A stretch of DNA of 60,978 nt, filler included, from Sphacelaria rigidula (Eukaryota): NCBI GenBank assembly GCA_964200075.2. It is 6 parts of 6 records of this genome, joined end to end, with 100 filler letters (N's around TTAATTAATTAA, not from the genome) between each part and the next. Parts side by side here need not be neighbours in the genome. Positions count along the whole stretch, not along the records: positions 20,361 to 30,440 come from CAXNAA020007189.1; 5 more parts are not named here. One strand, 5' to 3'. Positions 10,081-45,854 of this stretch are shown here, piece after piece. The first letter of the stretch is position 1. Every line of letters begins with the position of its first letter. The notes under the pieces are model-generated. The model saw only the letters and a program-made list of their open reading frames with translations. It was not told the DNA's origin and did no database searches. The translations under genes were made by a program, and so were the position numbers.

Positions 10081-10180
10081 NNNNNNNNNNNNNNNNNNNN
10101 NNNNNNNNNNNNNNNNNNNNNNNNTTAATTAATTAANNNNNNNNNNNNNNNNNNNNNNNNNNNNNNNNNNNNNNNNNNNN
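10081..10180. other. Artificial 100-nt contig spacer (N-TTAATTAATTAA-N, stops in all six frames); identical spacers at 20261-20360, 30441-30540, 40621-40720 and 50800-50899
   Basis: Same N-run with central TTAATTAATTAA every ~10,180 bp; the flanking segments are 10,080 or 10,079 bp. Confidence 0.95.
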
Positions 10181-11559
10181 TACGCTCTGCTTCTATGGCT
10201 GCCCCGCGGCTGTACTGAGTAAGAGAGCTGCTTGTAGATAAGACATGATGCTAAGCAAACACGTGAGTTCCTTATCAAGAGTCTGAACATGAATGAATCT
10301 ACATTGTGATAAGTCAAGGGAGGATAGCTAGGTCTGTGTGAGTTTGCCCACGTGGGAGCTTGGTGAGGCTGACACCATGGTATCTCCCGGCACTCATACT
10401 GATAGACCCCAGCCACTGCATTAGCTAGCTCCCTCTTTATGACAAGGGTGTTCTTGGTGTAATACGGACGAATTGACGCCGGTACAGCATCATGGACCCG
10501 ACCCTCCGCTACCCCGCGCGAAGATCATATGTACTGTAGTGTGCCACCGTGCAGTTTGCTGTCTGGTGCTTTGTACGCTGCTGTTGTACTGCACTACATA
10601 TTTGTATTACAGTTGCGCTTGTACATTTATTGACTGTTTACCTGCACGATGATACGTCATCGACCCCCGACTCGGCGAATTTCACCGAACTACGCGGTAC
10701 TATAATAAGTATCGCCAGCTGCGCTGGTATTGCCTCTAGACACACGGCATCCGGTAGTTATTTTTTTTCTCAGCCTCAACGTGTTCTCAAAATAGAACTG
10801 AGCGGTTTGACGTTGCTGTTCGCTGCATCCCACACGTCTATTCCTTCGTGGCATGCAGGTTTGTTAATGCGCCGTTGCGCGGGTGACAGCCACTGTATGT
10901 CTGTTGATTGTGACAACCTTCTTTTTCTTGTCTCTTGCTGTTACAATTTATTCCAATACACACACACATACGGTTTGTTGTGTGCCTTCGACACACACAC
11001 ATATATATATATATATTCCCTTTCGTCTGCACCTAATTAAAAAGGTGATAGACCGCTACATGTGCGGAGTTGCACGGACCTACATGTCGATCGAAAACTG
11101 TCGACAGTACCCTGCCACTATGTCTCTTTATATTTTTGTTCGCTCCGCCCCAGTCCTCAGCAACTGTGCTGTCTCCCACGACGAAGCGTTCACTTTTCAA
11201 CCCCCGCATCTCTACGTTAACGATCTGGCGCAATTGCGCACGTGTACAAGCCACTTCTGATATCAACCGCCCTTCGGCTTCATCGGAGCAAGATGTCACG
11301 AAGGACGGTGCTCTCCCTACAGACAGTGGTGACCGACCGTACAAATCAACCACGCGTAGTGAGACGAGTGATGAAAAAAACGAACCAGAACGTTGTGATG
11401 TTGATGAGAGCGTCGTTGCAGGACGTATTTACAGGGACGTGAGTGTGGATAAACACTAGTACTCCTAGCCCCCCCACAAACACATCTACTGCCCCGAACA
11501 CAGCCCGCCAGAATGGAACCCACGACTCTACCGATGCCAAACGTACCACCTGACGGTGT

Positions 11560-14196
11560 TTGGGAATCGCACAACACCCAGCGTTTCCGAATCACCGACG
11601 GTGTACTTTTACGTGTGTGACCGCTTGTAACACTTCGCCGTCACCCTCTTTACATTTTGATAACGCTTCTACTCCAAACCCCATTGTCGACCACAGGTCC
11701 ACAGTCGGGCCCCAACAACCTTCAACAACAAACCGCGGCAATATATTTTCTTTCACTCAGCCAGTGTACCATCACCACTTAACAAAATCCTCGTCGGCCA
11801 GCGTGGGTTCTCGCTTGTCGTGTGGGTGCGCTAGCGTTGACCGTTCTGTCATGACGGGTTCCATGACAGCACAGTCCTGTGCAACATTGCATGACTCCCA
11901 AATGCGTAATGACCAACCCCAGTGTTTTCATACTGGATCTGATCACCCAGTTGTATTTCTGAGTGGTAGTAATCAATGCCAGTTCGATCCGATCGCCCCA
12001 CGGGATCGGCAGTCGTGTAGCATAGCGCCTACCGCCTTAGAAGCAGGTACATCTTCTGATACGGTAGCTGTTACCCCTACGACCGTTCATCGTAGGATGC
12101 AACGTTTACAGAGACTCCCCAGCCCCGAGAAGGACTCAGGAGTCCAATCGACCCCAGTAACACATGCGTGCGAAATTCCGCGTGTGCCCGGTCCCCTTTC
12201 ATTTGGTGAGCGTAATTCTTCGTGCAATACGCGCGCCAGTGCCGAACCCTTGCTTTCCGTAGCTCAGCGGGTTGGGAAGGAACCCCAAGCGACAGTGCCG
12301 ACCAAGCGCCACACGTGTAGTCACGAACGGACTGACCTTGCCAGCTTCCCAAAGGCCCCTGGAACAGCCGGCTCTAGAGTGCGCTATACGCGACACCAGG
12401 AGAGGGCTCTTGCGGATGAAACTGTAAATAAACCTGTAGTTGCCGCTGCATCCGCCTACCAAGAAGGTGCCCGGGTGCCGGGCACAGCGGATGAAAGCCT
12501 TGTCGTAGAACAGGTCGGTGTTTCCCAGATCCCGAACAGATCAGCACCGCTTCCTGCCGACCCCTCGGAATCTATGGTGAAGAACAAAGTAGCGTTGACA
12601 TCTGTTGGAACAGTAAACCCGCTACGCCCTGCATGTAAATCTCATGGTGCCGGACAAACCCCGGCTGTGCCGTCCGAATTGCAGTCCGATCAGGACTGTT
12701 CCTCCCCTGCTTCTCACAGCTCCAGACAATTATTACAAACATCCAAATCCACTTCTTTTCCTAGGCGTCGTCCATCCCTGACTGTGTACGAAATACAACT
12801 TTCGTCTACTGCACCATACGCCCTAAAAAAAAACCCGTGCCATGACGACCCTTCGGAGAACACATTCGTTCCGGAGGATCAATCTCGAGTCTATTTTAAT
12901 ACCATTGCCCAACAACACAAGAGCGATGTGCCTACAGATCAATTATCGGAATTTGGACCGGACTTGGTCAGTGGAACTACACTCATGGATGACGCCTCCT
13001 TCACAACCCGAATAGGTATACATAGTGGAGTACATGCAACACGCCCTTTGATAGCCGTTGCACTGCCCGACACTGGCTCGCCACAAACTTTCGTCACAGC
13101 CAGCTGCTGGCAACACATAATGAACACTGGAGCAGCAGACAAATATTGCCTTTCTACTGTTCCCCCTCGTGTATTTGGCGGGTTTGGTGCTTCCACTCCC
13201 CCTACGGTTGAACAACCAGTAAGACTCAGTGTGCAATTCTTCGATGACACGGGTCCCACTGCACGATTATCTTTGTGGGTACTCATTGTGCCCGATGGTT
13301 CCATGTCGGTTGATGTTCTCTTGGGACGTGATAGCTGGTCGCGTTTTTCCACACATACATACACGACAAACGCACCTGTCTTGAACCGACCACTGACAGG
13401 CAGATTAAAACTTGGACATCACGACGCTGATCCAGGGGCTCAGGCCTATGTCGATGACCCAACACAAGCAGGCGATGCTACTCAACTGTATTATGTTGGA
13501 GACCACGTCGTCTCTCTGTCCCGTAAACCTCAACACATCCATGTGAATCTTGCGAGACGGAACGGATCCCCCGCCCTCACTGGACAGTACTTGGTCGACT
13601 TAACCAATCCCAACCAAACCCCAGACAGTATTCCCCCCTTTGATCAGACCGACGTACTTGTCCATGAGAGTTGGCAATCCATTCCTCTCACGTCCTCTGC
13701 ATGTCTCGATGTCCTTCCTGGTCAGTTGTTGGGTTTTGCTCGAGCGCCCCTCCTACGGGCAGCCTTGTCGAATGTATGTCTGAAGGTGCCACCGCAAGCA
13801 TCATCAGACAGCTCAGAGACAAACGGTTCCACTTCGTTCGATAAGACTGACCCCATGGTTGTAGCCGAATCGACTGATACGCCTGACACAAAATCTCCGA
13901 CTGTCTTACTAGATACATTCTCCCCAGAGCAACGTGTTAGTTTTCAACGATTATGGGATGGAATTCCCCCCCATTTGAGACACATTGCGTTTGATTTATC
14001 TGGTGAGGGTTGGACACCCCCGGTGATTGATCGGTTGCGCTCCATCTTTATACGATACTCTGAACGGTTTCCCAAATCGTCAACAGATTTAGGCCGCTGC
14101 AACACTATACCGTTCAAAATCAACATTCCTGATGGTACGACACCTATCGCCATGCGTCCGTACCGTACGAACCCTCTTCTAGCGGGTACAATTTAA
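11560..14196 (+). pseudogene. Gypsy pol N-terminal part: long S/P/T-rich linker, aspartic protease and start of RT; ends at an in-frame TAA
   Basis: ALPDTGSPQTF protease motif, DVLLGRD, then DLGRC...PIAMRPYR; the same frame resumes after the stop (VNLDEYLSAGLIRHS). Confidence 0.85.
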
Positions 14197-14700
14197 GTAA
14201 ATCTCGACGAATACTTGTCCGCCGGGTTAATACGGCACTCAGCGTCTCCGTGGGCCTCACCTTTGGCAGTCGCCCGGAAGAAGAATGGTAAGATCCGACT
14301 GACCGTCAATTATCAACAATTGAACGCAGTCACCAAAATCACACGTCTACCTCTTCCCCGGATAGATGAAATCATCGACTCTCTCGGCGGAGGCAAAGTT
14401 TTTTCGAACTTCGACATGCAGCTCGGTTACCACCAAGTGGTGATGGATCCGCACTCTATCGAGCTGACGGCGTTTTGCACCTCGTCAGAACTATATGAGT
14501 GGCTGGTCACTCCACAAGGTGCCGCCGGCGCCCCAGGCGCGTTTCAACGTGTGATATTTCGCGTCATTGATGGCCTGTCCAAATGCTGCATGTATCTCGA
14601 CGATGCGGTGGTTCACGGCAGTACACCTGCTGAACACGTCAAACATTTGGCGTTCTTCTTTTCTCGTTTTGAACAACACAATTTGAAGCCCGACACCTTC
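14197..14700 (+). pseudogene. Reverse transcriptase core, truncated; RNase H deleted
   Basis: SPWASP, RLTVNYQQLN, LPRIDE, GYHQ, TAF, PQG and YLDD (14593-14604); homology ends after NLKP. Confidence 0.92.
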
Positions 14701-15219
14701 CAAACCACCTCCGCCCACCATAGTCGAAACCTCGACTGTGCCTCCTCCACCCCGTGATGGTACCACCTCCGGTACCACACCATCCGACACCCTCCACAAC
14801 GTAGAAATAGAGGTGAACGTTCCGTTTGAGAATACACTGACCACCCCCTCTGACCTTGATCCAAATAACGCCTTGTGTCCATCCCACAGCGATTCGATCC
14901 CCTGCGTCTTGAACAACCCCTCCGACAGTGTATTCAAGGAACTGATCCTCTTTTCTCACGCCGATTGGGCCCGGGAACAGCAAGCTGAACCTGCTTGTAG
15001 AGCAGCTATACATTATCTATCCAATGGATGCACCTCCTCCTTTCCAGAAGCTGAGTTCCTTTTGCCAGTAGGGCCCCACCGAGCCCCCACACAGGATGAA
15101 GTTACTGAATTATTGCGTAAAGGCATGATTTATACGGATGATGATGGCGTTGTTCTTTTAGTTCACTGCCCCCCCACGAAACCTCCTGGAGGGAAACCTA
15201 CAAGTAGTAGTCACGCCAT

Positions 15220-16932
15220 TTGTTGGGTGATGCCCCCGTACGTATTTATGTTCCGACGCTTCTGCGTCCATGGGTTCTCCATGAACGCCACTCACAAGCA
15301 TCCACACATCTGGGCGTCGCTAGGACCTCCCAGATGCTTCAGCGTTATTTATTGTGGATTTGTATGAACCAATGTGTGCGTTGGTGGGTTTGGCGGTGTC
15401 TTCTTTGCCGAACACGCAAAACTTCGCGCCAAACAGTTAGATGGCCGGTAATCTCTATGTCCCTCCCCAATGGGCCTGGTGAAATAGTTTCATGGGACTA
15501 CTTTGGCCCCCTGCCCCTCACTGACAGCGGTAACAAGTACATTTTGTTGTTTACGGATCGGTTCAGTCGACATGCTGTGATGAATGCTGTTTCGGAGGCC
15601 AACTATAGTGCAGAAGGGACTGCCAACGTCCTTGTGTACACATATATCCCTCAGTGGGGTGTCCCCAGACGTCTGTTATCCGATAACGGCCCACATTTTG
15701 CCGACAAACTTTCTGCCGCGATCAGAAATCTCCTGGGTGCCCATCGCATTTTTACTAGTTCATACCATCCGTCCACAAACGGTGGGACCGAACGACTTAA
15801 TCACACGATGGCGCAAATGCTTGCCACAGTGACCAATGAGCGACAAACGGACTGGAACATGCACTTACCCCTTGTCCAAATGAACTACAACAACTCCGTC
15901 AATGCCGCCACAGGCTTGGCTCCCAATGAAGTTCATATTGGTCGTATGCCCAGGTTGCCATTGACAGTGTTCGACAGGAAACCCCCTGGTGGTCATCAGA
16001 GTTTGGATCGGGATATTGTGGAGTATCATGTGCCTGTTAGTAATCGTCTTTGTCTTGCATATGAGGTGGTACGGGAGCAGAACTTGATCAACGCAGCAAA
16101 GGTAGCTAAGGCAAACAGCATGTTGGATAATGCAGTGAATTACCGTCCGGTGTGGAAAGTAGGTGAATGGGCATGGGTGTATTACGATGTGAGAACTGTA
16201 ACCCAAGGTGCAAGCTTTGCCAAGTCGTCGTCGGATAAGGTGTTGAAGTCGAAGCTTTGCTTGAATTGGACTGGTCCTTGGAAGATTTCGGCAGTTGGGC
16301 CCTGTGATACCGCCCCTGACGATATGCCAATAGGTGAGAAGCTTTTGTATTTGTATTTCCCCACGGATGAGCCTGGCGTCAAACCCAAAAACCGGGTCTT
16401 GATGCTTCGGTGCAAGCCGTGTCTGCCCCCTCACGACACTAGTGATATGCCCAAGCAATTGCCTATGGGGCTCAATCAGTTTATGCTAACCATGTCTGCG
16501 TCGAAAACCCCACCGTACCACATGACGGTTGAAGACGCTGACGGTCCTCTTGAACGTGTAGTGGTTGATCGCATCTCGGGCCATCAGTTAGTCCGAGGTC
16601 GAGGTGGTAAAATTGCGGTTATGTATCAGACTCACTGGAAAGGCCTCATGCGTGTTACGTGGGAACGGGAGGAGGATTTGCGTCATTTTCGAAGAGAGAT
16701 ACTTTCATATTGGGTCGGAGATGTCGGCCAACACCGCCCGTTGAACAAACGATATAGGTCTATGCGAAAAGGCGCAGAGCTCGTGAACTGGCCCGAGAAC
16801 ACTCGGCACGATTTGTCATTTCGGGCTATAGTCTCATTTCTCGTTCGCAATACCTGCGCTCTTTTTCGAAGAAACGTTTGCCGAAAGGTGCATATTTTTG
16901 GTACAGGGCTATGGATTCGCGGTGGTGGCTAA
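15220..16932 (+). pseudogene. Gypsy integrase (HHCC, DDE, GPW) plus chromodomain, frameshifted
   Basis: H..H..CLLC zinc finger; SWDYFG, LSDNG, NGGTE with D-35-E spacing; WTGPW; VDRISGHQ...YQTHWKG...TWEREEDL chromodomain at ~16555-16690. Confidence 0.92.
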
Positions 16933-20260: not shown

Positions 20261-20494
20261 NNNNNNNNNNNNNNNNNNNNNNNNNNNNNNNNNNNNNNNN
20301 NNNNTTAATTAATTAANNNNNNNNNNNNNNNNNNNNNNNNNNNNNNNNNNNNNNNNNNNNAAACGACTAAGGCGAGCAACAAGTGAAAACGCCCCCTCTC
20401 CCCCACCCCCCCAGCCACTGGAACCCCCCGGATATCTCAGGACTGTCAGCCAGTAAAAGTGTTCCAAGGCGACGCTCGCCGTCTGAGGGTTGAT

Positions 20495-20620
20495 CTCTGT
20501 TATCCTGTCGAAAACAGGGGAGGAAATTGAAAGTGAAGGGGGAGGGGGTGTCTTCTCGTAATGTTGCCTCCTGATCATATGACATGGCTTGGAAAGATTC
20601 TACCTTGCTCCAACCACGTT
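20495..20620 (+). repeat. Dispersed repeat, second copy at ~25690-25815
   Basis: cctgtcgaaaacaggg...aaattgaaagtga...gtctt...ttgcctc...atgac...ggcttggaaa in both. Confidence 0.65.
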
Positions 20621-20849
20621 CCTAAAAACACATCATTACTTCCGAGTCAGTTCTTCTCCTCGAACGGTATGGGGTCAAAACAGTGGTGTCACCTTCCGCG
20701 GTCGGTGTATCCACTCCCTCCCGTACTCAGGAGTCCTCGGGTGGGCCGAAGTCACCCAGAGGGCTTCGCGCACCCCATACTGTTGTATTGCACGTGAGCG
20801 GCTCCTGGTCGACACCGTTATTTTTGTTTTCCTCACACTTTGAACCCCT

Positions 20850-21113
20850 CCCCTTCCTCGGGACGAGTCCGTGGTCTCAAGGGATCATCCCATCTCTCCC
20901 CCGGTACACGCCTTGCGTTTTGGTCTCGCAGATTGGGTCAGCACTCCCGCGCCGCGTCAACTCACGTCAAACAAACTACTTTGTTTACTCACGTTCTCAT
21001 GCTCTCCACGGTGGAAATACGATATTGCGAAGAGAAAACCCAACGCATCGGGAATCGAACCCTCGTTCGCTCCAACTTAATGGTGACAGCTGGACCATTA
21101 CACCTCGTCGAGC
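20850..21113 (-). mobile_element. tRNA-derived SINE (Pol III head; 3' boundary uncertain, may extend to ~20640)
   Basis: Minus strand has A-box-like GGTGTAATGG (21095-21104) and B box GGTTCGATTCC (21051-21061), no complete cloverleaf, followed by a non-tRNA body. Confidence 0.7.
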
Positions 21114-21274
21114 TCTTTGTACTGGTCGTCAGTCATGCTCGGTACCATATCCGTTCCCTGTGGGCCCGGCGCTAGTACCTTCATCAGTCACATTTTTCGG
21201 CATGCTGTTTTCAATTTTCCAGCAAACTCTTTGAATAACCACCGACAATGAGTCACCGGCTGAAGCTCGTTTTA

Positions 21275-21976
21275 GCGCCCCCCACCTCGTGCTTCGCTCC
21301 GTCTCGAAAGGGATGCGTGGTCAATGGTCAAACGACTAAGGCAAGCAACCAAAGAAGACNNNNNNNNNNGTTTAAAGGGAAGCGGGGTAAATGGTCAAAC
21401 CAATAAGGAAAGCAAAAAAAGGGGCCCCCCCCCCCCCCCCCCGACACACACACACACACACACACACCTGATGACTATGGCATGCATGATCATGAGTACA
21501 CCCCCACACATCCCCACACCTCGCTTCGTCTCGAAAGCAGTAGACTTTATCACTTGGTTGTTGACAGATAGTTCTCGGAAATCTACGGCTTGTGGACAGG
21601 TGCAGCATCGGATTATAGTGTAGACACCGAAATCCGTATCTTTGAAGGGGGTGTGCTCCTGGCGTGCGCAGAACGTGTTCTTGTCTTCATCGGCGCCTGG
21701 GGCGCCGATTTGACGTCTGGCAACGTACACTTCGCCTTGGGAACACGTTGCACCCCCCTTGCCCGAGGGTTCTCGGTATGTCTTCGTTGGGGTTGAGGTA
21801 AGGGTTAGGGTTAGGGTTAGTGTTATTCGAAATGCATCAGCACCTGCACAAACCATAAATTTCCGAGAAATATCTATCAACTGCCAAGTGGTAAATTCAC
21901 CTCCTCGAAAGGGATGCGTGGTCAATGATCAAACGACTAAGGCAAGCGACAAATGAGTACGCCCCCCCTCCCCCCA
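21275..21976 (+). repeat. Tandem cluster of a short unit (ctcgaaagggatgcgtggtcaatg-tcaaacgactaaggcaagc...atgagtac-Cn); another copy at 20361-20410
   Basis: Unit at 21275-21358, partial at 21380-21440, and MITE-interrupted at 21500-21976. Confidence 0.7.
21538..21903. mobile_element. MITE with ~65-bp imperfect TIRs, perfect 8-bp TSD and internal (TTAGGG)n
   Basis: TSD CTCGAAAG at 21530-21537 and 21904-21911; empty site at 21303-21320; arms tttatcacttgg...ttctcggaaat...caggtgc / gcacctg...atttccgagaa...ccaagtggtaaa. Confidence 0.85.
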
Positions 21977-23130
21977 CCCGGATCTAAAAGAGTGCAATGA
22001 GCACTCGTCCATCTCACCATCGGGGTGCGCGTATTGATTTAACTCGGCTGACATTGTTGATGTTGTTGCCGGTAAAGAACCCCTCCAGGGCACATCTCCT
22101 TTTCCGGTCGAAACGTCTAAATACGAGTAGCCTCACTTCATGCCCCATCCTACTCATTTTCCGACGGCGACCAATCGTTATACTGCTCGTGCGGGCAGAG
22201 TGCAGCATACGTCGTCGTCATAAAATACCGTGAGTATGTGATGCACGCCATCACGGTAGGTTTTCCTTGACTGGCCCACTGAAAAATGAACATTGGTCCA
22301 CTCATGTTCGGGAGTCGGAGTATACGTCGGATGAGCGTAGCGTTCAACTCCCGTCCCCTCATTGTTGCACCAAAAGCTACGAAGTACTGTGAAAAAAAGG
22401 CGACGTCCCGAGTGAGCAACACTCTGTCTTCACACAGATGAAGTCATCTTGAGCCGGGATCCGCATCGGTGTCACTATGACCGCTGAACGGCTACGAAGA
22501 ATTGTGGGTGCTTGCTGAACCAGCACGCCCCCTTGTTTCTGCTCTGCTGTGGTGAACGCCACATGCTGAGCCATGGGCTCGCTGCGTAAAGGGTTGCCGA
22601 CCCGCAGAGTGCTGCTCCATGGTGCAACTATCACTGGTTCGTTCTCGAATACGGTTACCGATTTCGATACGTGATCTGTTTCGAAGAGAGTCGTGAGCGT
22701 ATCGTAGATTGCATCATCCGGCTTCTGTTGAGCAGGCAGACAGGTTGGTCGTGCCGACGGCGGTACAGTGTCTAGCATGCACAACACGGTTCTCCACCTA
22801 GACCCGCACAAATCCAACCGACATGAAAAAAATCGACGATGTCTCTAGGTTGTGTGCTTTCGATTCAAGAAATCGTTCGAGCTGACCGGGACTCGAGGAA
22901 CCTACCAAACAATTCGCATGTGATCGACCTGCTTCAAGTGCGACCGTTTTTCCGCCCAAGCGGTCGTGAACAACTGTACGTATCTCTGGTGAATGGCGTG
23001 TCCGTTTATCTTCTCTAGACCGGCAGTGTCTCGGCGGAGGTAATCGGAAACCGTACCGCCACCCGAGTGACAATAATGGTGTATCTCGTCATGCTCACCA
23101 CGAGTTGTAGGATGTACTACTGCGTTTTCT
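21977..23130 (-). pseudogene. Tyrosine recombinase of a DIRS-type retrotransposon with N-terminal ALOG-like domain; frameshifted and 3'-truncated
   Basis: Read across frameshifts: PRDIVDF..LDLCG..T.VHARHCTAVG...C...C.LRYAHDSLR...GNPLRSE..AQHVAFTTAEQKQGGVLVQQAP (ALOG-like); RDVAFF...TMRGREL (catalytic Arg box); KTYRDG; SLHSFRSG HxxR at 21977-22000; the Tyr box is missing. Confidence 0.85.
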
Positions 23131-23859
23131 TGATGCGGACACAAAGAGAAGCGGGCGAGAGCATCCTTGTTCGCCTCATTCTCCGTGTCCAGAGCTTAGC
23201 GTGCTCCGAGAAACTTTACTGCGAGACTGAGCGCCGTGCGTATAGTGTATAGCCCGCAAGGTCTGGTAATGATATTGCAACGATCAAATGTAGGTCGAGG
23301 GATGGAAAACGGGAAAACATTCGGTGATAAAGTAGATTATACTCTCGCAAATTTCACCTCAAATGCCAGCATCCCCCACTTCTTGAAGCAAAACGGCAGG
23401 GATGTGTGCAGAGGGAATCGCGTTTGTTTCTTCTCTTCTTGCTTTGAGATCAACAGTAAAACGAGTTTGACGCAAAGAAGGGCAAAGAAAATAGCTAATG
23501 CTGACGAGGAATCGAACCAACGTGTTCGCGTTGCAAAATCCATCGTCTTCCTCCCTCAGGAGCCATTTGAAAACAAATCCGCGGCTTGAAATCCGTGAAA
23601 ATTTCGCCACGGATTACGCTGTAAATCCGTAGCAGGAGCCATACTATGAATCCGTCCGGAGCGGAATGTGCGCAGATCGAGTCCTCGTACCTATTACTTT
23701 TTCGTGTCCGCTCTTTTATTGATGTTTTTTTTCGTTCTGACGCTACAGTCTTCAATCCGTAGAACCACGGTTTTATCCGTACATATCCCTGCAAAAAGGT
23801 TGCTGTCCCTCTTCAATGATGAACCCGGAAGAAAGGTGAAACCCCTCCTGGGATTGAAA

Positions 23860-24203
23860 ACCCCCAGATCTTACTGCGGCACTTGGCAGTAGGAGAAACC
23901 AGGATTGTTTCCGATCTGGGACTGCTACAACGGCCCGTGCCTTGCACTCCCCTGTGACAACACTCCAACCATCCTGGCCGGCGGAAAACAGAAACCGAAA
24001 CGCGTCCTGGGCGATCCAGGCATGCAACCCACGTCATGGGGCAAGACGGCAACTCTTGCACATCCCTGCGTATGGTACCGAGAGTAGAAAAATAGGTCGA
24101 CCTCTGTACATTGCCCCGCGTCCCAGGGCCGATGAACCGGGGCGGGGGTGACCCTCGAGTCTACACCGAAGTCGCCAGCCCAGCCGCACGAATTTCCGAA
24201 CAC
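23860..24203 (-). pseudogene. DIRS-type DNA N6-adenine methyltransferase domain remnant
   Basis: WAGDFGVD...FYSRYHTQGCARVAVLPHDV...FGFCFPPARMVG, then frameshifted ECKARAVVAVPDRKQSWFLLL; lies upstream of the recombinase on the same strand. Confidence 0.75.
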
Positions 24204-24879
24204 TGACTAGATTATGATCATGACACTGCAGGCTAGGGGGTTTGATGTTGAAGCACAAATGCACATAGAAATGGTACGAATGCAAGCAAAAGACGGTACA
24301 ACGGGGCGACCCACACGACAAGAATGAGCGCGCAGACCCACCAAACACAGAGCGCGTAGATATACGATACTGGCAACTCGTTAAACGCTCAACATCGCAC
24401 ACGTCACCTCTGTGGGGGTTAGACGTGAGCGAAACGAGCGATCACCGCGGTTCGGCAGGGTAATAACGAAATATAACCCCCACGATACCTGAACAACACC
24501 CCACGAAAGTAGAGCACCACCCCGTACGAACAGAAAAAAGCACGCCGCCCAGGCTGTGTATCGGCGTCTGTGTCGAAAACCCACGCACACAGTTTGTAGT
24601 GAAAGACTTGCAGGGAAAGGATGAGGGCGTGTTCCGCCAAGGGCGCCAAAACGGAGGTGAGAAAACGAGCGCTAGTGAACCGCCCCTACGGGACGCGTCA
24701 CGCATACATAGTATTCACCTTACCCGTGTTAGATACGAAGGCCAGAGGCCGTTTCGACTCCGGCTTGCTCGAGGCTCGTTGGGGATGACCGAGAATTCAT
24801 GCTACGGTAGGGCTTGCCCATTTGGACCTAGATATATTACTCCTTCAGGGGCTCCTAAAGTTGAGAGCTGCACGAGTCA

Positions 24880-25560
24880 TTTTTAGGATGAAGTAAAGGG
24901 CTCCGAACAATACGAACCTCAAAAGATATCCGTGCACCCCCATCGTAGTACCACTCGGAGATCTTCCGCCAAGCTCCTCCTCTACTCGAGGGACTCGATT
25001 GTCACATGTAGATCGCCCGATGTGCTTATGGCCAGAGGCCGATCAGCCGCTGACAACGCTCTGGTGCTCCACTGAGTCGCCCGGCCTCACGGCTGCTCCC
25101 CCCGCGGTACAGAGCGCGGAGTGTGGCGGTGTAATGTCTGTCGGGAGGACCGGAATTCCGCCGGCAGTTTCCACGTTTTTCGTGATAGTGGCATGTCCAA
25201 AGATATTTCACGATTGCTTGGCATTGCGCCCGCTTCTGCCGCAGCGCGACTCCCGCAGTCGAACCACCCTCTTCCCGAGCACCCATTTCCATGGAGAACA
25301 GCTTGGAGGGATTTTGTGCATCGCCCGAGTCGTGGATCCGGGTAAGAGGCCCAAAAAGGCGTTCGAGACCTACTGTCGTGAGCTCGCGTGGACCGGGTTT
25401 CAAGACAAAATGCTCGAGTCGCCAAGTCGGGACATTTCTGTCTCCCTACTGCGTGACTAGGGTCAGAATTTTGTCGAGGCTCGCGGGCGGCCGCGCCGGG
25501 TCCAGGTCGGTGTTCGGCATACTCATGGCGGATACCGTGAAATGAATCACAGTGACTGCG
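24880..25560 (-). pseudogene. Decayed coding segment, possibly the gag of the same DIRS element
   Basis: Broken ORF (MPNTDLDP...LERLFGPLTRIHD...LWTCHYHEK) 5' of the MTase on the same strand; assignment is positional only. Confidence 0.3.
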
Positions 25561-26089
25561 GAAGGGACACAGGCCGAGCCAAGAGACAATAAATCTCTCT
25601 GGAGTACGTGAGCTGCAAAGCCACTGGGCGAGAGACATGGGCGTGTATGCTGACGAATGAATGAGTCTCAGCGGATCACTATTTCATATGTGTTTCCCTG
25701 TCGAAAACAGGGTGGGATAAATTGAAAGTGAGGAGAGGGCCTGTCGTCTTACAATTTTGCCTCTCTGGCTTATGACGGCTTGGAAAAATGATGTCTTGTT
25801 CCGATGACGCTTCTAGTGATACGTTTCTTATAAATGCCGTCCCACCAATAGCGTTCATCTGCATCTCACTTACAGGAGGGGTGTTTCACCTGATGACTAT
25901 TTCGTTGACTCCCCCCTCTCGGCACTCCTGTGTTGTTGTCGATATGGACTTGCGGCGTACAGTGTCTTTTACCACGTTCACAGAAGAGGAGCAGGTAGTT
26001 GTGCTTCCTCCGTCGCCCTTTGTGTGCGTGGTATTCTGTGTTTGATATAAAACTCATCTCGGCGCAGTCTGTTTGCCACATATACACCG

Positions 26090-26470
26090 TGACACATTTG
26101 AAAAATACGGGGAAAACGTAACTATGGGCCATTTAATGCTATGTAGGATTTGAGTTTTTGGACGGGACAAATGTAACGTAACGTGATGTAACGTGTGGAC
26201 CTTGAAGCAGTGTCTCTTGGGATTTTCTAGATGTAAAAGAAGCTGGTTTGTGAATTTTCCACGTGACACGTGACACGTGACACAATCACGAAAGAACACA
26301 GAGTTTTCGTCACATTTGGAAAGTAAAACACTTTGTTAGGGTTCATGCGAAGGACCGAAGGACCACACGTTACATCACGTTACGTTAAATTTGTCCCATC
26401 GCAAAAATCAAACCTTTCCTGGTTCTAAATGACTCAAAAATAGCTTTTTTTCAAATCTGCCATGTAAAAG
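26090..26470. mobile_element. Foldback/MITE-like inverted repeat
   Basis: gggacaaatgtaacgtaacgtgatgtaacgtgtgg (26164-26198) vs ccacacgttacatcacgttacgttaaatttgtccc (26363-26397); weaker outer arms. Confidence 0.7.
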
Positions 26471-26696
26471 CGTCACGTGTAACGTTTATACCCCTGGAAA
26501 TTTTCAAAAATGGAGCATGGCTCAGGGAAAATGAAAAAATTATTTGGAGCATGAATGCCTCCGTACCATACACTGCCAAAACAAAAACACAAGCTCAACT
26601 GACACCTCCGGGCGCCGCTCATACCAGCTCATCTTGTTTCTCTGTCACCGTAATCAGCACAATTACACATTTGAAACTTGAGGGTCGTTCGTGGTC

Positions 26697-27550
26697 TTCG
26701 ACTATTCTACATCCTTATTTTCAACATCAGTCAGCTTTATGTCCGGATGAATAAGAGCAGAAACCACGATTGTAGGTAGCAGCATGTGCGCGACATGCGA
26801 AAGACATACGGCGCTTTTGCTGCTGACCTTGCACAGTCGTGGCTTCTGCTCTTCGTCATCCAGACGTACAGCTAACCGATGTTGAGAATGAGGATGTACA
26901 GTAGTCGAGAAGCCATGGGACATGGTGACGACTGCCGAGGAAATATACCGCAACAAAGGCATGGCGATGAAATGCATACTACGCTCGGGATGCCCGCCCC
27001 CTTGCCGCACCCCACACCATACCCTACTCGATGCAGGTCAACGATGTGCCCACTTATACCGCAGACATGATGCCGAACCCGGTCCCCACCGGAGGGATTG
27101 GTGCTCCATCCGGATCGGGTATCGTTAACGAGGTTTGTGCTCCACAACCATGTGTATATCGCGAACGTGATACCGCAGCTGCTCTTCAACGTAGAAATTT
27201 GAGCTCAATCCGGAGCGGGCATCGTTAACGCACGAGGGTTCTGCGCCACAACGAGGAGCAGGTTCGGCATCATGTTTACGGTATGCACATGATTATGGCG
27301 CACAAACCTCGTTAACGACGCCCGCTCCGGATGGAGCACCACTTCCTTTGTTGAGGACCAAGTTCGGCGTCATGGTCGCGTTATAAGCAGGCACATCGTT
27401 GACCTTCACCGAGAAGGATATAATGTCGGGCGCGGCAGAGGGGCGGGCATCCCGGGTGTAATATGCATTTCATCGCCATGGCTCAGTTCCGATATTTCCT
27501 CGGCAGTGATCACGATGTCTGATGGCCTCTCGACTACATCCTCATTTTTG
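26697..27550. repeat. Compound palindrome: arms 26697-26777 / 26829-26910 overlapping arms 26883-27152 / 27286-27550, with partial direct copies in the loop
   Basis: catggcgatgaaatgcata vs tatgcatttcatcgccatg; cgttaacgaggtttgtgc vs gcacaaacctcgttaacg; agagcagaaaccacga vs tcgtggcttctgctct. Confidence 0.8.
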
Positions 27551-28654
27551 ACAGTTGGGCATCGCAGCCGCACAATTATGACGACGGCGCGGGCTGCACC
27601 AGCATTGGTGCTGACTTTCTGAGCGAGATCGGGGAGAGGGAAGATATGTCGGAGGGTTCGGAGGGAATATACGGTGGTGGCAGCTTTTGGTGGCAGGGAC
27701 AGGAAAGGCGCAAATGTTAAGGGCGGGGAGGGTTTGCTCGGGGGACTGGAGTTGCGGGCCGAAGATGGTGAGCAGTAACGATGTACGACCTGCACCGTAT
27801 GTATAGATAGGAGGCCTCTGAACCACATGCATCGCGCGCGTGCGTATGTCGCGTGTGTCGCCCCCGCTCCCCCCCCAAAGAAAACAAACGGGGGGTGGTG
27901 GTGGTATTTTGGTTAGTTTTGTCACCTCGTTTGGCTTTGGCCGCTCTTCTTGTCATGTGTGAAGCCTGTATCGCATCATCAGTGTTTGCTGTAAATGAAT
28001 GTGTCCCAAAGATTTCCTGTTCGTCGGTTGTGTGATGAAAGCAAAGTCAGTTTCCTGTATTGGTGTTCATAACTTGCCCCTTAGTCGGGGGTTCCAGTGC
28101 TCTGCTGCTGCCAAGTTGTCGGGTGCTAGTTTTCTCTGTGCTGTAGTGAAAGGCGATATAATTTGGGACATGACAACGCGAACAAAATATGCAGATACAC
28201 CGTCGTGAGTGTCGATACGACCAGAAGTGTCCTACCCGTGTGCTGCACTGTACTATACTGCGCTGGATTATGCTGTACCAGAAATTCTTCCTTACTATGT
28301 TCACAGCGTGGCATTAGATCCTCCATTGCATTGTACAATGTATTGTATAATACAACGCAGTACAGCACAAGCACAACCAGCGTACCAAGCAACGAGTGTC
28401 TCCAGTTTGGCATGGCGTAGATGGCAAGGTATAATACCCCCTCTCCGAGTGATTCTACGTGTTGGAGCGTCGATTTTATCCAAAATCGAGACCCGTCCCT
28501 TTTGGCAACACCCCAACACCGGACGAGAGTGATGGAATTTTTTTCCAGCGAAGCAGGTTTCGGGATCGTGGCGCCCGTCAGTAGTATTCTTGTGTTCTTG
28601 TTATGACTTCGCCAAGTATGACCTTCTAAGTCAAATTGGCAATGGTTACTGACA

Positions 28655-28719
28655 GTCGTCACGCAAATGCTCGGCCTGGGCCAAGCCCTACCTCCTGGGG
28701 TGGTGGTGGTGGTGGTGGT

Positions 28720-28751
<32 letters not shown>

Positions 28752-29092
28752 GACTTTTCACATTTTTCTGAAAAAGCCCAATCGTGGGAGGTGTTGTATG
28801 AAAAATGGACGTCTCCACCCACCTCCAGCGTACACAGGTCATGGACTGCCCTGGTGGATGTGCTTTACAGCTTTTCGTGTTGTTGTGATGTAGTCACCAA
28901 GCATTACATTCCTCTTCAAATTGTGCTTTACAGCTTTTCGTGTTGTTGTGATGTGATGAAGTCACCAAGCACTACAATTCCTCTTCAAATTACAATTAAA
29001 TGGCAACGACTATCGACAGCCATCATGCAAACCCTCGGCCTGGACCATACCCCACCTCCTGCATGGGGTGGCGCGTGTGTCGACTTCTCAGG
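28655..29092 (+). repeat. Nested direct repeats with (GGT)n(GT)n microsatellite
   Basis: ctcggcctgg...cctcctg...gtgtgtcgactt at 28670-28756 and 29034-29086; ~63-bp tandem duplication 28859-28991. Confidence 0.7.
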
Positions 29093-29459
29093 TTTGGCAG
29101 ATTCGATACTGTACGCAGTACACTCCTTTCCACTGCAATACGTTGTCTAGGGGTGCATTTATATTTTGGGGATTAGACAAGAAAGCGTATACCACGTGGT
29201 TCTAGGGATACAAAAGGGTAGCGCACTTTTCGGTTCGGGGCGCAGCACTGCACGCGCGCTGGGCATCTCCGAACACGTTCCAGTGCCTCAGCCCTACACC
29301 CAACGAGCTTTGGCAGCATGGCCAACCTTCTTGCTTTTTACACATGGCAACAGTGTTTACCGGGGTGCGGGAAAGGAGACCTTGTGGGAAAACCCTGCTT
29401 AGTCAACAACCCAGCCGGGTATACCTGACACTAAGCTAAAGAAATATATCGTGTCTTTT

Positions 29460-30038
29460 TTTGTTCACGTGCGTACCCTCTCATGTCCCTTGACATCCTG
29501 CATACCTGATTTGGCTCAGTGGTGACCCTGCTGCGGGCTCCGCAGTGGACACCCCAAACACCCCCTCTTTTGCCAATATACGCCCTGCCAAAAAAATCAA
29601 AAAGTTCAACGACCAAGATATCGTGGCCCGCTGCTGGATACCGCGTAGTCCCAAAGTATCGGACTACGTGCGCCGGGCAAGAATGCTCGTCTCCGGGAGA
29701 TCACAAAGATCCAAAGACGTGTGAAAAGTTTTGCCCGCCCACACAAGATCCTGCCACTCTGTCATCCTCCACATGATGACGTGCGTACGGGCGGGTGACG
29801 GCAAGACTCCCCACACTTGTTGAACTTTTTGTAGTCTCCCGCAGACGGATGTCGTGCTCTGCGCACATAGTTGGGTATTTTGGAACTGCGCCGCAGCAAG
29901 CCGCAGACCACGATATCGTGGTCGTTGGACTTTCAGGTCGTTCCGGCAGGTTGACAAAAAGGGTATATTTGGGTGTCCACTGCGGAGCCCGCAGCAGGTA
30001 TACGTCAAGGAACTTTAGAGGTTACACACGTGAACAAG
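29460..30038. mobile_element. Foldback element, arms ~29460-29722 and ~29812-30038
   Basis: cctgctgcgggctccgcagtggacaccc vs gggtgtccactgcggagcccgcagcagg; ttgttcacgtg vs cacgtgaacaa; aacgaccaagatatcgtgg vs ccacgatatcgtggtcgtt. Confidence 0.8.
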
Positions 30039-30049
30039 GAAGGGCTATT

Positions 30050-30385
30050 CTATGGGGTAAGTGTTCGATATTTCCATGAACTATTTCGATACAATCGTAG
30101 TCGTCCGGTACGAAGAGGCATTTTACGGTACCGCCCAGGACGTCGTGGGTACTCACCCACGCCTTTATATCCTTGATTACGTGCGCAACAAGTTGCCGCA
30201 GGGGGCCGGTTTCCATCCCACCCCTTTGCCCTTCCCACTCCTCATCCCCATACAAACCCCTGTGAACCAGCTCCCACACATCTCTCCTGGAACGCTTCGT
30301 GTCGTAGTTGAAGCTCACACACTGCTGACCATGTTGCCAAAACAGCTCGATGGGCTGAAAAGATGGCATGTAGGTGGGGTGTACT
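30050..30385 (-). pseudogene. C-terminal fragment of an IS630/Tc1/mariner DDE transposase
   Basis: P.YMPSFQPIELFWQHG matches the P-Y-x-P-x-x-(N/Q)-P-I-E-x-x-W motif holding the third catalytic residue; cut upstream by a repeat. Confidence 0.75.
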
Positions 30386-32231
30386 CATGATCATGCATGC
30401 CATAGTCATAAGACCATCGACCTCGGATCCCTACAAAGCCNNNNNNNNNNNNNNNNNNNNNNNNNNNNNNNNNNNNNNNNNNNNTTAATTAATTAANNNN
30501 NNNNNNNNNNNNNNNNNNNNNNNNNNNNNNNNNNNNNNNNGTGTATCTGCGACGTGTTCCTGTGTATTCAACATGGTATACATGAAATCATCACGCATTC
30601 GTCTGCGCATGATTGGACTTAACTAGATACTTGTTCGCTCTAGTACATCGGCTCGCACAGTAGAGATGCGCATGTGGACAACAACTATGTCCAACACTAT
30701 TCTGTTTGTAACAATGTATCAACCATCTGCAGTATCAAGAGTCATTCATGGGTGTATTCTATTCTGAGGCCGGTGGACAGGAGTGACGTTTTCGCATGTC
30801 GTGAAACCGGCGAGGGTTGGAGGTGCTGGAATGCGCGCGTAGCCCAAACGGTTGCCCCCATTACTCATCGCGAAGTCAATTGATTGGGATGTGATGTTTT
30901 GCATCATCTGCGCCAAGACGGCAGCTACAAGTTTGGTGGTCGATTTTGTTTATCTCATCGGGATTCGAGCTTTATAACAAATTCAGTGGAAAAAACATGG
31001 TTTTTTTGCGATTTCCTCGATCACCAGAACAGCTTTGGTTCCACAATCTTTCCAGATTGTAGCTTGGACAAACACACGCTGGTTAGTAGCCTACGCACGC
31101 CGTGGTTCGTAGCCCGGGACAGCGAAAATGGGAAATCATCGAGTGAAAACCCTACTCAAATCATAAGTACTTGGGGGAACTTTACGGCGTGCATAATCAG
31201 GGGATGAACGAGATCTCCGGTCTGTTCGTGCTTTTGGTCGGTGACACTTTTTGGGCTCATTTTGGGGGGTCAGGCGCGCCCATAACAGTGCAGGCCGTAC
31301 AATGCTGCACGTTGTTCAAGTCCTTTTCACGTCGCACTGTAGGAAGAGAACATATATATATATATATACATTGTCCTGCGCTGTCTGTACTGTACTTTTC
31401 CCCTTTCCTTTCACGCCCTACTTACTGTGCTGCAGCAGCTGTGCGCAAATATGTTGTGGAACGCGCGTGAAAAACTGGAGTTCGTGACGGTATATAACAC
31501 CCCCATATATCAAAATAAGCCGCAGGCATCTACATTGAAAATAGCCAGCTATACGTAGCATATAAGCCGCGCCAATTCTGCAGTGCATGGCACCGCACGT
31601 ATAAGCACGGTATAGCGCACTGTCCCTCGTGGTATTGTACAGTTCAGTACAGTTTATCGTTGTGATTATATGTCCACATCAAAGTACAATATCAACCGCG
31701 ATGAGATCTTTGGCGTTTTTATTAATCTCAAAATTATTTTGTGTATGTATTAGTTTGGTAGACACGAGACTACGTGTTTCTCATCAGGTATATGCATTCA
31801 TAACCGAGGTATAGCCTGTTCTGGCAACAACACCTCAGCTGCAACTAAAGCTTGCGTGCAGTATGTGGGACTTGAACAGCAGAAGCTGCTCGCAAACAAG
31901 TTCTTTCTCTGCCCATTTTCAGGTATTGGCGGGCAAGATGGGCATTTATTTCGAACAGCTTCCGGTGTACAAATTCTATCTGCTATGGTGTATATGGGAT
32001 CATCTGTACAGCTTCTGCTCTTCGAAACGAATCTTTTTTGCCCTATTCCGAATTTGATTTAGGATTTATTTCGAACAGCAGAGGCTGTCCAAATTCCAGA
32101 TTTCCACTACACTTGTTGTGCATTTAGAAAAAATCCGGGGGATTTCAATGTTGACACCGACCTTTGAGAGCCCCAAAATTGAAAATCCCAATAATTGAGA
32201 AGTACAAAGAATACAACTATACTAACTACTA

Positions 32232-38176: not shown

Positions 38177-40566
38177 AGAGTACGTTTGGCGGCTTTCTAC
38201 CGATGATATTCGCTATTCCAACAAATATTTGCTGTTCCAACAAATATTCGCTTGTGCAAGATATCCCGTATCAGCTCGCAGCGGATATTGTACCTCCCCG
38301 GGTGTGTTGGAGTACGTTTGGCGGCTTTCTCCCGATGATATTCGCTGTTCAAATAAACATTCGCTTTTACAAGATATCCCACTTCAGCTCACAGCGATAT
38401 CGAACCTCCCTGGGTGTGTGAGAGTACGTTTGGCGGCTTTGTCCCCATGGTCTCCGCTGTTCCAAGAAATATTCGCTGTTCTATGGAATGTTCGCTTTCT
38501 CAAACGATCACATTTCAGCTCACAGTGGATATTGTACCTCCCTGGGTATGTTAGAGTACGTTTGGCGGTTTTCTCCCGATGATATTCGCTGTTCCCAGAA
38601 ATATTCGCTTTCTCAAACCATCCCATTTCAGCTCACAGAGAATATTGTACCTCCCTGGGTGTGTTGGAGTACGTTTGGCGGCTTTTTCCCGATGATATTC
38701 GCTGTTCCCAGGAATATTCGCTTTTGAAAAAAGTCTCATTTCAGCTCACAGCAGGTTTTGTACCTCCCCGGGTGTGTTAGAGTACGTTTGGCAGCCTTCT
38801 CTCCTTGATATTCGCTGTTCCCAGAAATATTGGCTGTTCCAAACAAATATTGGCTTTTGCAAAATATCCCGTTGCAGCTCACAGCGGATATTGTACCTCC
38901 CTGGGTGTGTTGGAGTTTGTTTGATGGCTTCATCTCCTTGATATTCACTATTTCAGGAAATATTTCCTTTAGCAAAATATCTCACTTCAGCTCTCAGCGG
39001 ATATCGTACCTCCCTGGGTGTGTTGTACGTTTGGCGGCTTTATCCTCTTGATATTCGCTGTTCCCAGCAATAATCGCTTCCGCATAACATCCCATTCCAG
39101 CTCACAGGGGATATTGTACCTCCCTGGGTGTGGTGGAGTACTTTCGGCGGCTTCATACCCTTGACATTTGCTGTTCCCCGAAATATTCGCTTTCGCAGAA
39201 TATCCCATTCCAGCTCACAGCGGATATTGTACCTCCCTTGGGTGTGTTAGAGTTCCTTTGGCGGCTTTGTCCCCATGATATTCGCTGATCCCAGAAATAA
39301 CTGCTTTCGCAAATCATCCCATTCCAGCTCACAGCGGAAATTGTACCTCCCAGGGTGTGTTTGAGATCGTTTTGCGACTCCACATCCTTGATATTTGTTG
39401 GATGTTCCAAGAAGTATTCGCTTTTAAAAAAATATTCACTTTTGCAAAATATCCCACTTTAGCCTACAGCGGATACTGTACCTCCCTTGGTGTGTTAGAG
39501 TACGTTTGGCGGCTTCATCCCCTTGACATCCGCTGTTCCCCGAAATATTCGCTTCCGCATAATATCCCAGTTCAGCTCACAGCGGATACTGTACCTCCCT
39601 GGGTGTGTTAGAGTACGTTTGGCGGCTTTGTCCTCATGACATTCGCCGTTCCTCGAAGTATTTGCTTTCGCAGAATATCCCATTCCAGCTCACAGCGGAT
39701 ATTGTACCTTCCTGGGTGTGTTAGAGATCGTTGGACGGCTCTAAATCCTTGATATTTGTTGGATGTTCCAAGAAGTATTCGCTTTTAAAAAAATATTCAA
39801 CTTTTGCAAAATATCCCACTTCAGCCTACAGCGGATACTGTACCTCCTTGGGTGTGTCCGAGTACGTTTGACGACTTTATCCCCATGATGTTCGCTGTTT
39901 GAAACAGTTTTCGCTGTTCCAACAAATATTCGCTTGTGCACAATATCCCATTTCAGCTCACAGCAGATATTGTACCTCCCTTCTTGTGTTTGAGTAGGTT
40001 TGGCGGCTTTATCCTCTTGGTATTCGCTGTTCCCAGCAATAATTGCTTCTGAATAATATCCCATTCCAGCTCACAGCCGATATTGTACATCCCTGGGTGT
40101 GTCGAAGTACGTTCGACGACTTTGTCCCCATGATATTCGCTGTTCGAAACTGTTTTCGCTGTTCTAACACATATTCGCTTCCGCATAATATCCGATTCCA
40201 GCTCACAGGGGATATTGTACCTCCCTGGGTGTGTTAGGGTACGTTTGGCGGCTTCATCCCCTTGACATTCGCTGTTCCCCGAAAAATTCGCTTTCGCAAA
40301 GTATCCCATTCCAGCTCACAGCGGATATTATACCTCCCTTGGGTGTGTCAGGGTTTTTTTGGCGGCTTTGTCCTCATGATATTCGCTGTTCCCAGAAAAA
40401 ATAGCTTTCACAAATTATCCCATTCCAGCTCACATCGGATATTGTACCTCCCGGGGCGCGTGAGAGACCGTTTAGCGGCTCTATATCCTTGATATTTGAT
40501 GTTTCAAGTAGTACCCCTGTTCCATGAAATATTCACTTTTGCAAAATATCCCATTACAGCCTACAA
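38171..40566. repeat. Tandem array of ~20 units of ~113 bp or ~133 bp (satellite/minisatellite)
   Basis: Unit gagtacgtttggcggc...gatattcgctgttcc...atattcgct...atatcccatt-cagctcacagcggatattgtacctccctgggtgtgtta; long units carry an extra ~20-bp atattcgctgttcc module. Confidence 0.95.
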
Positions 40567-45660: not shown

Positions 45661-45854
45661 GAGTCGACCAGTATGAGCGGTTGAAGGACTCCATCAAGAC
45701 ACGTCTATCTGCACCTGGTCCGCACGTGGAGACGGCCACCTTTTGGGCAGTCGTCGCGTGAGCTTGTCGGTGGATGCTTTTCAGGAGACTGGGAGGCAGG
45801 GGACCGAGGTGGCGGGATGAGGCGGTAGGATCTTGAGTAGAGCGCGACCCGGAG

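Follow-up and report, generated by a model that had tools for sequence, protein, structure and literature searches.

A probable dead remnant of an ALOG-type DIRS1/PAT-like retrotransposon in Sphacelaria rigidula and the state of its methyltransferase-like domain

The stretch of DNA considered here (the window) comprises 60,978 nucleotides, filler included, of the Sphacelaria rigidula genome assembly GCA_964200075.2. It consists of six pieces of approximately 10.08 kb each, joined by artificial linkers (44 N + TTAATTAATTAA + 44 N) at 10081-10180, 20261-20360, 30441-30540, 40621-40720 and 50800-50899, across which features should not be read. The element under study lies wholly within the third piece (20361-30440, from CAXNAA020007189.1), which also contains an assembly gap of 10 N at 21360-21369. 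What is kept of it, in the expected order and in the same orientation on the minus strand, is the C-terminal methyltransferase-fold domain of a pol protein (24203-23795) and, downstream, a recombinase gene starting near 23220. From inspection of the sequence alone (hereafter, the sequence-only reading), the interval 21977-25560 had been proposed to hide a DIRS-type retroelement encoding an adenine methyltransferase and a tyrosine recombinase with an ALOG-like N-terminal domain, with reverse transcriptase (RT) and ribonuclease H (RNase H) deleted.

The motifs quoted in that proposal are found on the minus strand where it had placed them, namely FGFCFPP at approximately 23999-23979, HHYCHSG at approximately 23080-23060, GNP...EQ...GV..QA at approximately 22600-22520 and LHSFRSG at 21997-21977, and the homology that surrounds them is far above that of controls. 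Every family assignment given below passes via intact database relatives and not via fragments of the window. For the recombinase, a read-through frame of the minus strand (P0001, 22380-23195, with two TAG codons entered as X) was used as the query in an exhaustive phmmer search of 1.84 billion representative proteins, which yielded 42 matches at E<=0.001, 12 of them at E<=1e-10. The 488-residue P0004 aligned over residues 10-253 of P0001 with an E value of 5.9e-18 and is, with the 407-residue P0009, one of the two longest of the 17 relatives tallied below; P0032, a 2230-residue PKD-repeat protein also present among the matches, is unrelated, and P0041 looks unrelated as well.

When intact relatives were used as tblastn queries against the window, 22 reversed or shuffled queries serving as controls (best score, 29.3 bits), P0004 detected three segments of 87-92 bits each, in three frames, between 23168 and 21977 (linked E value, 7.9e-42), and its residues 410-469 detected two further segments at 21281-21104 (E 8e-9). 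Frameshift-aware alignment of the window to P0004 and, for pol, to P0045 allowed the damage to be counted. Residues 5-409 of P0004 correspond to 23220-21977 with 197 of 402 identical codons, 8 frameshifts and 6 in-frame stops, and residues 410-469 to 21281-21104 with 33 of 58 identical codons, 1 frameshift and 1 in-frame stop. The 8 frameshifts between 23220 and 21977 imply more frame changes than had been assumed. Over the whole copy at least 11 frameshifts and 8 in-frame stops are present.

The main part of the recombinase gene (23220-21977, minus strand) contains a zinc ribbon, an ALOG domain and the first part of the catalytic domain. The HHYCHSG segment, which had been described as a degenerate Cys/His segment, is indeed a degenerate N-terminal zinc ribbon (23055-23120, minus strand): it aligns to the CxxC...CxxC of P0004 with three of the four cysteines replaced and one kept, and in 3 of 17 relatives the corresponding N-terminal segment is matched by the zinc-ribbon families DUF7575/DUF7577. 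It is followed by the ALOG-type DNA-binding domain with its inserted zinc ribbon and the GNP...EQ...GV..QA helix (22520-22930, minus strand; residues approximately 100-235 of P0004). The C..C / H..C..C..C pattern of the zinc insert is kept, broken by a stop; it is encoded in different frames from the long open one that the sequence-only reading had followed. In a Pfam scan that covered 20 of the phmmer matches, the ALOG_dom model (PF04852, cut-off 26.6 bits) was passed by three proteins, P0004 (32.7 bits, residues 106-205), P0005 (32.9 bits) and P0006 (32.5 bits), with P0009 (25.5 bits) and P0037 (19.7 bits) under the cut-off; in the alignment of 17 relatives the tallies were 5 for ALOG (E<=0.01), 3 for DUF7575, 3 for DUF7577 and 2 for Phage_integrase. 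Via the relatives, the recombinase N-terminus is thus of ALOG type, a DNA-binding domain of four helices into which a zinc ribbon is inserted, in line with the original suggestion of an ALOG-like domain.

The first part of the catalytic domain (21977-22457, minus strand; residues approximately 255-409 of P0004) retains the box I arginine at 22359-22357 and the HxxR of LHSFRSG, with 3 in-frame stops in its last segment. Both P0004 and P0009 carry the sequences TKRG.EL, HSFRSGGA and WRYM, which, from established family knowledge, we take to be the Arg, His-x-x-Arg and Tyr signatures of tyrosine recombinases, and these same two of the 17 relatives are matched by Phage_integrase (P0004, E 0.0019, 18.5 bits; P0009, E 0.0052). 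By taking into account that the window aligns to residues 5-469 of P0004, the gene can be assigned to the tyrosine recombinases even if the nucleophilic tyrosine has been lost in this copy. The C-terminus (21104-21281, minus strand) reads CRKM-stop where the relative has WRYM, the catalytic tyrosine being replaced by a lysine at 21196-21194, and it falls outside the interval first proposed for the element. In the profile search for ALOG, phage integrase and Dam with which the proposal was to be checked, fragments of the window matched none of these families, and among the relatives ALOG_dom was found above its cut-off, Phage_integrase only weakly and Dam not at all.

A library protein of 133 residues, P0002, is 99% identical to the open frame at 22778-22380 (minus strand), so that part of a dead recombinase has evidently been annotated as a protein by gene callers, a point of some relevance for those who use such annotations.

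Upstream of the recombinase gene a fragment of 93 residues (23928-24206) was found to match P0044 (61% identity, E 7e-24) and P0045 (57% identity, E 6e-21), proteins of 761 and 797 residues, respectively, that both contain RVT_1. With P0044 as the tblastn query only residues 603-743 were found in the element, at 24203-23795 (105 bits, E 1.7e-30), and the alignment of this region to residues 637-778 of P0045 shows identity at 80 of 135 codons, with 2 frameshifts and 1 stop. This region corresponds to the C-terminal methyltransferase-fold domain of pol (23795-24203, minus strand), in which FPP (23987-23979) replaces NPP. Residues 1-602 of P0044, which include RT and RNase H, find nothing at the locus by tblastn, so that RT and RNase H are missing here, as had been supposed; the one other match of P0044 in the window (E 0.01) is to the RT of an unrelated long terminal repeat (LTR) element in another piece. 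Relatives with this C-terminal domain do contain RT and RNase H, which are absent here, so that the copy is a non-autonomous remnant. The segment 23343-23393 (minus strand) may represent the last 17 residues of pol: it is matched by residues 778-794 of P0045 with 22.7 bits and an E value of 2.4, at the noise level of the shuffled controls, and the sole points in its favour are that it is collinear and that a stop is present at 23337-23339.

Two nested repeat insertions are found in the copy. The recombinase gene is interrupted at 21282-21976 by 695 bases made of short repeat copies with poly-C, the 10-N gap, a (CA)n tract and a short TTAGGG-like run. The repeat unit, approximately 50 bases followed by poly-C, occurs at 20361-20408, 21296-21355, 21374-21421 and 21904-21979, one copy starting the third piece and others flanking the gap. 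When the contigs of four public runs were compared with the window at 85% likeness for estimates of copy number and depth, their summed depth over the interruption ranged from 1e5 to 1e6 versus approximately 66 in the flanks, and none of them bridged 21282-21976. A short repeat of extreme abundance has thus been inserted here, once or several times. The other insertion (23426-23791) separates the pol remnant from its possible last residues; its depth amounts to 40 to 70x the flanking depth, contigs derived from other copies diverge from it by approximately 10%, and a repeat search of 23300-23950 revealed neither terminal nor inverted repeats around it. A second moderately repeated mid-copy sequence was observed at 24632-24999, the depth of the two mid-copy repeats being approximately 7 to 70x that of the flanks.

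The remnants are flanked by a pair of direct repeats of approximately 135 bases on the minus strand, a candidate 5' terminal repeat at 25680-25815 and, in the same orientation, a candidate 3' terminal repeat at 20487-20625, which are 74% identical over 138 bases (E 1e-14 to 1e-19) and both at single-copy depth. If these are the terminal repeats, the copy measures approximately 5.3 kb and the 1.5 kb upstream of the pol remnant would be a decayed 5' region left by an internal deletion. It is somewhat more probable that the pair marks the ends of an element that has lost its 5' half in this way than that a truncated copy lies beside unrelated DNA. The stretch concerned (24204-25679, minus strand) may accordingly be a decayed 5' part or unrelated DNA: it gave no Pfam match on either strand and no tblastn match to the pol relatives, and its 198-residue frame (25090-25683) retrieved only sub-threshold bacterial hypotheticals from the ESM Atlas. 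With respect to the interval first proposed, 24204-25560 has no detectable homology and the recombinase tail at 21281-21104 has to be added. Gag, RT and RNase H are gone, presumably through internal deletion or truncation.

The coding remnants are at single-copy depth (66 in run X1, 14 in X3 and 25 in X4) with no close paralogues. A contig from a run labelled 'algae metagenome' spans 21949-23522 and shows this decayed copy again, differing at 35 positions and by one gap (approximately 2%), so that the remnant is common to a slightly diverged genome. The sharing of this copy at approximately 2% divergence, the absence of close paralogues and the 26% divergence between the candidate end repeats point to an old, fixed remnant. 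The identity of the remnant proteins to their nearest library relatives is only 49-61%.

Taken as a whole, these data lead us to conclude, with a probability of about 0.9, that the stretch is the dead remnant of an ALOG-type, DIRS1/PAT-like tyrosine-recombinase retrotransposon of the class first described in Ectocarpus. The DIRS-type assignment made from sequence inspection is borne out by tblastn of the intact relatives (E 8e-42 for the recombinase and 2e-30 for pol), and the placement with DIRS1/PAT-like elements, as opposed to Ngaro or VIPER, follows from the methyltransferase-like domain that ends pol upstream of, and co-oriented with, the recombinase. RT and RNase H within the same element, which characterize the DIRS order, are not found in this copy. 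With its frameshifts, stops, insertions and lost tyrosine, the copy is unable to transpose or to produce a single one of its proteins.

Several results weigh against this assignment. None of 20 minus-strand stop-to-stop fragments has an ALOG, integrase or methyltransferase Pfam match at E<=1, nor does P0001 at E<=10, and the Phage_integrase matches of both relatives are under the Pfam cut-off of 27.1 bits. The structural model of P0004 (predicted local distance difference test score, pLDDT, 44.2) was too poor for a fold search, and a search of solved structures with a profile built from the recombinase alignment returned Cre or Tre in 11 of the 12 matches listed at non-significant E values (0.5-1.4). 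A scan of metagenomes gave only two pol contigs (1.4 and 1.9 kb) without flanks, in which co-occurrence of pol and recombinase could not be seen. As for the limits of the element, the interruption at 21282-21976 includes the assembly gap, and end repeats that are only 74% alike could be two copies of an unrelated repeat. Finally, the Z scores of the methyltransferase fold discussed below are only moderate, best values of 7-8 being common for models that have no clear relative, and Dam is not singled out among the matches. Other searches were also negative: Pfam on 8 plus-strand frames gave no relevant match, a 155-residue frame had no match in a word-based protein search and no usable one in the ESM Atlas, and Rfam had no match in 20361-26000 at E<=0.1.

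The nature of the methyltransferase-like domain was studied through its relatives. A search with the P0044 domain alone yielded 11 proteins, all close relatives (51-100% identity), of which the only named one is the 'unnamed protein product [Ectocarpus sp. CCAP 1310/34]'; ten of the 11 were aligned for motif and Pfam tests. A model of the 166-residue domain, obtained with the relatives as alignment, reached a pLDDT of 73.2 and a predicted TM-score of 0.73. The best Foldseek match was KsgA (E 9.6e-4, TM 0.55), and an exhaustive VIA-align comparison placed the rRNA adenine dimethylases KsgA/Dim1/Erm first with Z scores of 8.5-9.7 (best, 4jxj_A, Z 9.7, root mean square deviation 3.0 over 127 residues), followed further down by a cap adenosine methyltransferase (8.3), M.TaqI (7.7), T4 Dam (7.2) and E. 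coli Dam (6.6). Methyltransferases account for most of the best 50 matches by a wide margin, which is consistent with a class I (Rossmann-like) fold. In a search of solved structures with a profile from the pol alignment no methyltransferase was among the 60 matches listed, all of which are RTs or pol proteins.

N6-adenine methyltransferases carry the sequence (D/N)PP[Y/F/W] as motif IV, whose polar residue serves to bind the amino group of the target, the aromatic one providing stacking for the flipped base. The family considered here has FPP without exception (10 of 10 relatives), followed by Ser, Thr or Ile (by Ala in the window), so that the (D/N)PP(Y/F/W) expected after strand 4 is not found; the segment that follows the first strand is DLMATPAS, with no glycine-rich loop for S-adenosylmethionine (SAM). 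The position of FPP at motif IV is suggested by its place after a predicted strand rather than by a residue-level superposition. No Pfam methyltransferase family, Dam included, matched any of the 10 relatives at E<=10, RVT_1 being the only match (in 9 of 10), although a very distant Dam relationship is possible despite this result because the HMMER filters drop most weak matches. We thus read the domain as a class I methyltransferase fold that lacks the residues N6-adenine methyltransferases use. In all likelihood the methyltransferase-like part has no DNA-methylating activity, and the inactivity probably extends to the whole family rather than being limited to this copy. Iyer and Aravind (2012) refer to the domain of the ALOG retroposon as 'catalytically inactive' (PMC3537659), and Piednoel et al. 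(2011) consider the function of the methyltransferase domain of DIRS elements unknown (PMC3266345). Of the adenine methyltransferase initially proposed, the fold holds and a working Dam-like enzyme is not supported.

The proposal that the element brings its own writer of N6-methyladenine (6mA) deserves to be weighed in this context, as a reading in which the same element is recognized and its intact members are credited with a working, non-canonical adenine methyltransferase that would modify their own DNA or cDNA. The presence of N6-adenine enzymes among the best fold matches, and the good conservation of the domain in the 10 relatives with many invariant positions around FPP, which suggests selection for some function, are in line with it. 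The substitution of FPP[S/T/I] for (D/N)PP[Y/F/W], the missing SAM loop, the absent profile matches and the published verdict of inactivity contradict it. Furthermore, in the available text of a 2026 preprint, even canonical adenine methyltransferases (DAMs) borne by transposable elements (TEs) gave no 6mA increase in dam-deficient E. coli, and those of DIRS elements had no consistent relation to host 6mA (10.64898/2026.05.21.726589). For the copy in the window the frameshifts and stops would settle the matter in any case. This reading is therefore regarded as quite improbable. The somewhat broader idea that the FPP domain of intact members still has a function, either as a non-canonical adenine methyltransferase acting on cDNA or an RNA-DNA hybrid, or as a non-catalytic module for flipping or reading bases during replication or recombination, is unlikely too. 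If an adenine methyltransferase were nevertheless present, a host with little 5-methylcytosine would gain a DNA mark borne by a TE, and the dead copy would only mark the family. As things stand, a family in whose domain both the catalytic Asn and the aromatic residue after it are missing should not be counted among 6mA writers without biochemical proof.

The remaining alternatives concern the identity of the locus as a whole. As the copy has no RT, it might be taken for a Crypton-like DNA transposon, or for a lone recombinase gene beside an unrelated methyltransferase-like fragment; that fragment, however, shares 57-61% identity with the C-terminal domain of proteins whose chain also contains RVT_1, and it immediately precedes the recombinase, on its strand, exactly as in the Ectocarpus retroposon, which largely refutes the idea and leaves it very little probability. 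The same low standing is given to a domesticated host gene, for instance a solo ALOG DNA-binding protein made from the 133-residue open frame at 22778-22380. The near identity of P0002 to this frame, the maintenance of the locus at approximately 2% divergence in a second sample and the solo ALOG remnants discussed for Nematostella (PMC3537659) might be invoked for it. Of the ALOG domain, however, the frame contains no more than the final part, since the zinc insert and the initial helices are in other frames with stops, and approximately 33 N-terminal and 20 C-terminal residues derive from the wrong ancestral frame; moreover, among the listed runs that hold the stretch none is on record as RNA, and of four runs only guessed to be RNA the one compared with the window (X6) covers a few short pieces at a depth of 2-5 and is uninformative on expression. 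That the motifs were stitched by chance from unrelated frames, as the lack of any direct Pfam match on window fragments might have suggested, was also considered and is refuted by the library-wide E value of 5.9e-18 and by tblastn E values of 1e-30 to 1e-42, collinear over 1.6 kb, with the 22 controls at or below 29.3 bits; its probability is negligible. The remnant of an ALOG-type retrotransposon is thus the reading retained in what follows.

For an intact element of this type, the literature gives the following scheme. Once transcribed, it is copied by its own pol, which consists of RT, RNase H and, last, a methyltransferase-fold domain, and after reverse transcription the element is inserted by the recombinase. 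In the recombinase, DNA binding is the task of the ALOG domain with its zinc ribbon, and cutting and rejoining that of the catalytic domain by means of the Arg, the His-x-x-Arg and the Tyr.

With respect to its surroundings, the window contains eukaryotic, TE-rich DNA, with RVT_1, rve, Integrase_H2C2 and zf-CCHC in long open frames elsewhere. The single named relative, from Ectocarpus sp., and the labels of the sequencing runs are in keeping with an algal, plausibly brown-algal, host. Genes of LTR retrotransposons are found on the plus strand at 11554-16929 (RVT_1, Integrase_H2C2 and rve) and 44462-47039 (zf-CCHC and Integrase_H2C2), and 38206-40565 is occupied by a satellite-like array in which tandem copies, 68-92% alike, repeat with a period of basically 113 bases or so (also 132, 245 and 362). 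Large imperfect palindromes were observed at 26698-27546, where 680 bases are self-complementary at 76%, and at 29527-29998, where 488 bases are so at 69%. One more decayed copy of a known class is to be expected in TE-rich algal DNA and is of little importance in itself; it does indicate that, apart from the published element, algal data contain diverged relatives of the ALOG-type recombinase lineage.

The closest known system is the ALOG retroposon of Ectocarpus, described in 2012 (PMC3537659), so that the element class is neither hidden, as the sequence-only reading had it, nor new. The likeness, which rests on the published description rather than on a direct comparison of sequences, extends to the gene order, with a methyltransferase-like domain that ends pol followed by a recombinase that combines a zinc ribbon, an ALOG domain bearing a zinc ribbon insert, and a catalytic domain; possibly to terminal direct repeats, which are candidates here; and to the decay of most copies by stops and frameshifts, all copies but one of the Ectocarpus element being described as inactivated by stop codons. 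The intact Ectocarpus element measures a little over 9 kb, and the direct repeats at its ends are 159 bp long, whereas the copy discussed here is without Gag, RT and RNase H and has approximately 5.3 kb between its candidate repeats.

As in the canonical DIRS1 elements, such as DIRS-1 of Dictyostelium, a tyrosine recombinase takes the place of the integrase and pol is a series of RT, RNase H and a methyltransferase domain (PMC3266345). Canonical DIRS1 elements, however, combine inverted terminal repeats and a complementary region inside the element with an N-terminal domain of plain XerC/D type, devoid of the ALOG zinc insert; PAT elements are stated to differ from DIRS1 in having direct (split) repeats (PMC3266345). 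The candidate ends here are direct repeats. The 2025 catalogue of Ectocarpus TEs reports 5 families of PAT-like DIRS elements with 842 copies, 63 of them intact (PMC12477816), which resemble the present element in their methyltransferase domain, direct repeats (candidate here) and brown-algal presence with few intact copies; the term ALOG does not occur in the available text of that catalogue.

The DAM-TEs, in which an adenine-methyltransferase-like domain of prokaryotic origin is carried by DIRS and LTR elements, are similar in principle, and were found with a DAM profile at E<=1e-5 as domains that conserve Asn-Pro-Pro followed by an aromatic residue (10.64898/2026.05.21.726589). The present family differs from them in having Phe-Pro-Pro followed by Ser, Thr or Ile and in matching no Pfam methyltransferase model; judging from the absent Pfam matches, a profile search of that kind would miss it. 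The match of PF04852 to the relatives connects the recombinase to the plant ALOG (LSH1/G1) transcription factors, which use the same family of DNA-binding domain. In plants, ALOG proteins are solo domains encoded by host genes, whereas the domain found here is the broken N-terminus of the recombinase of a mobile element.

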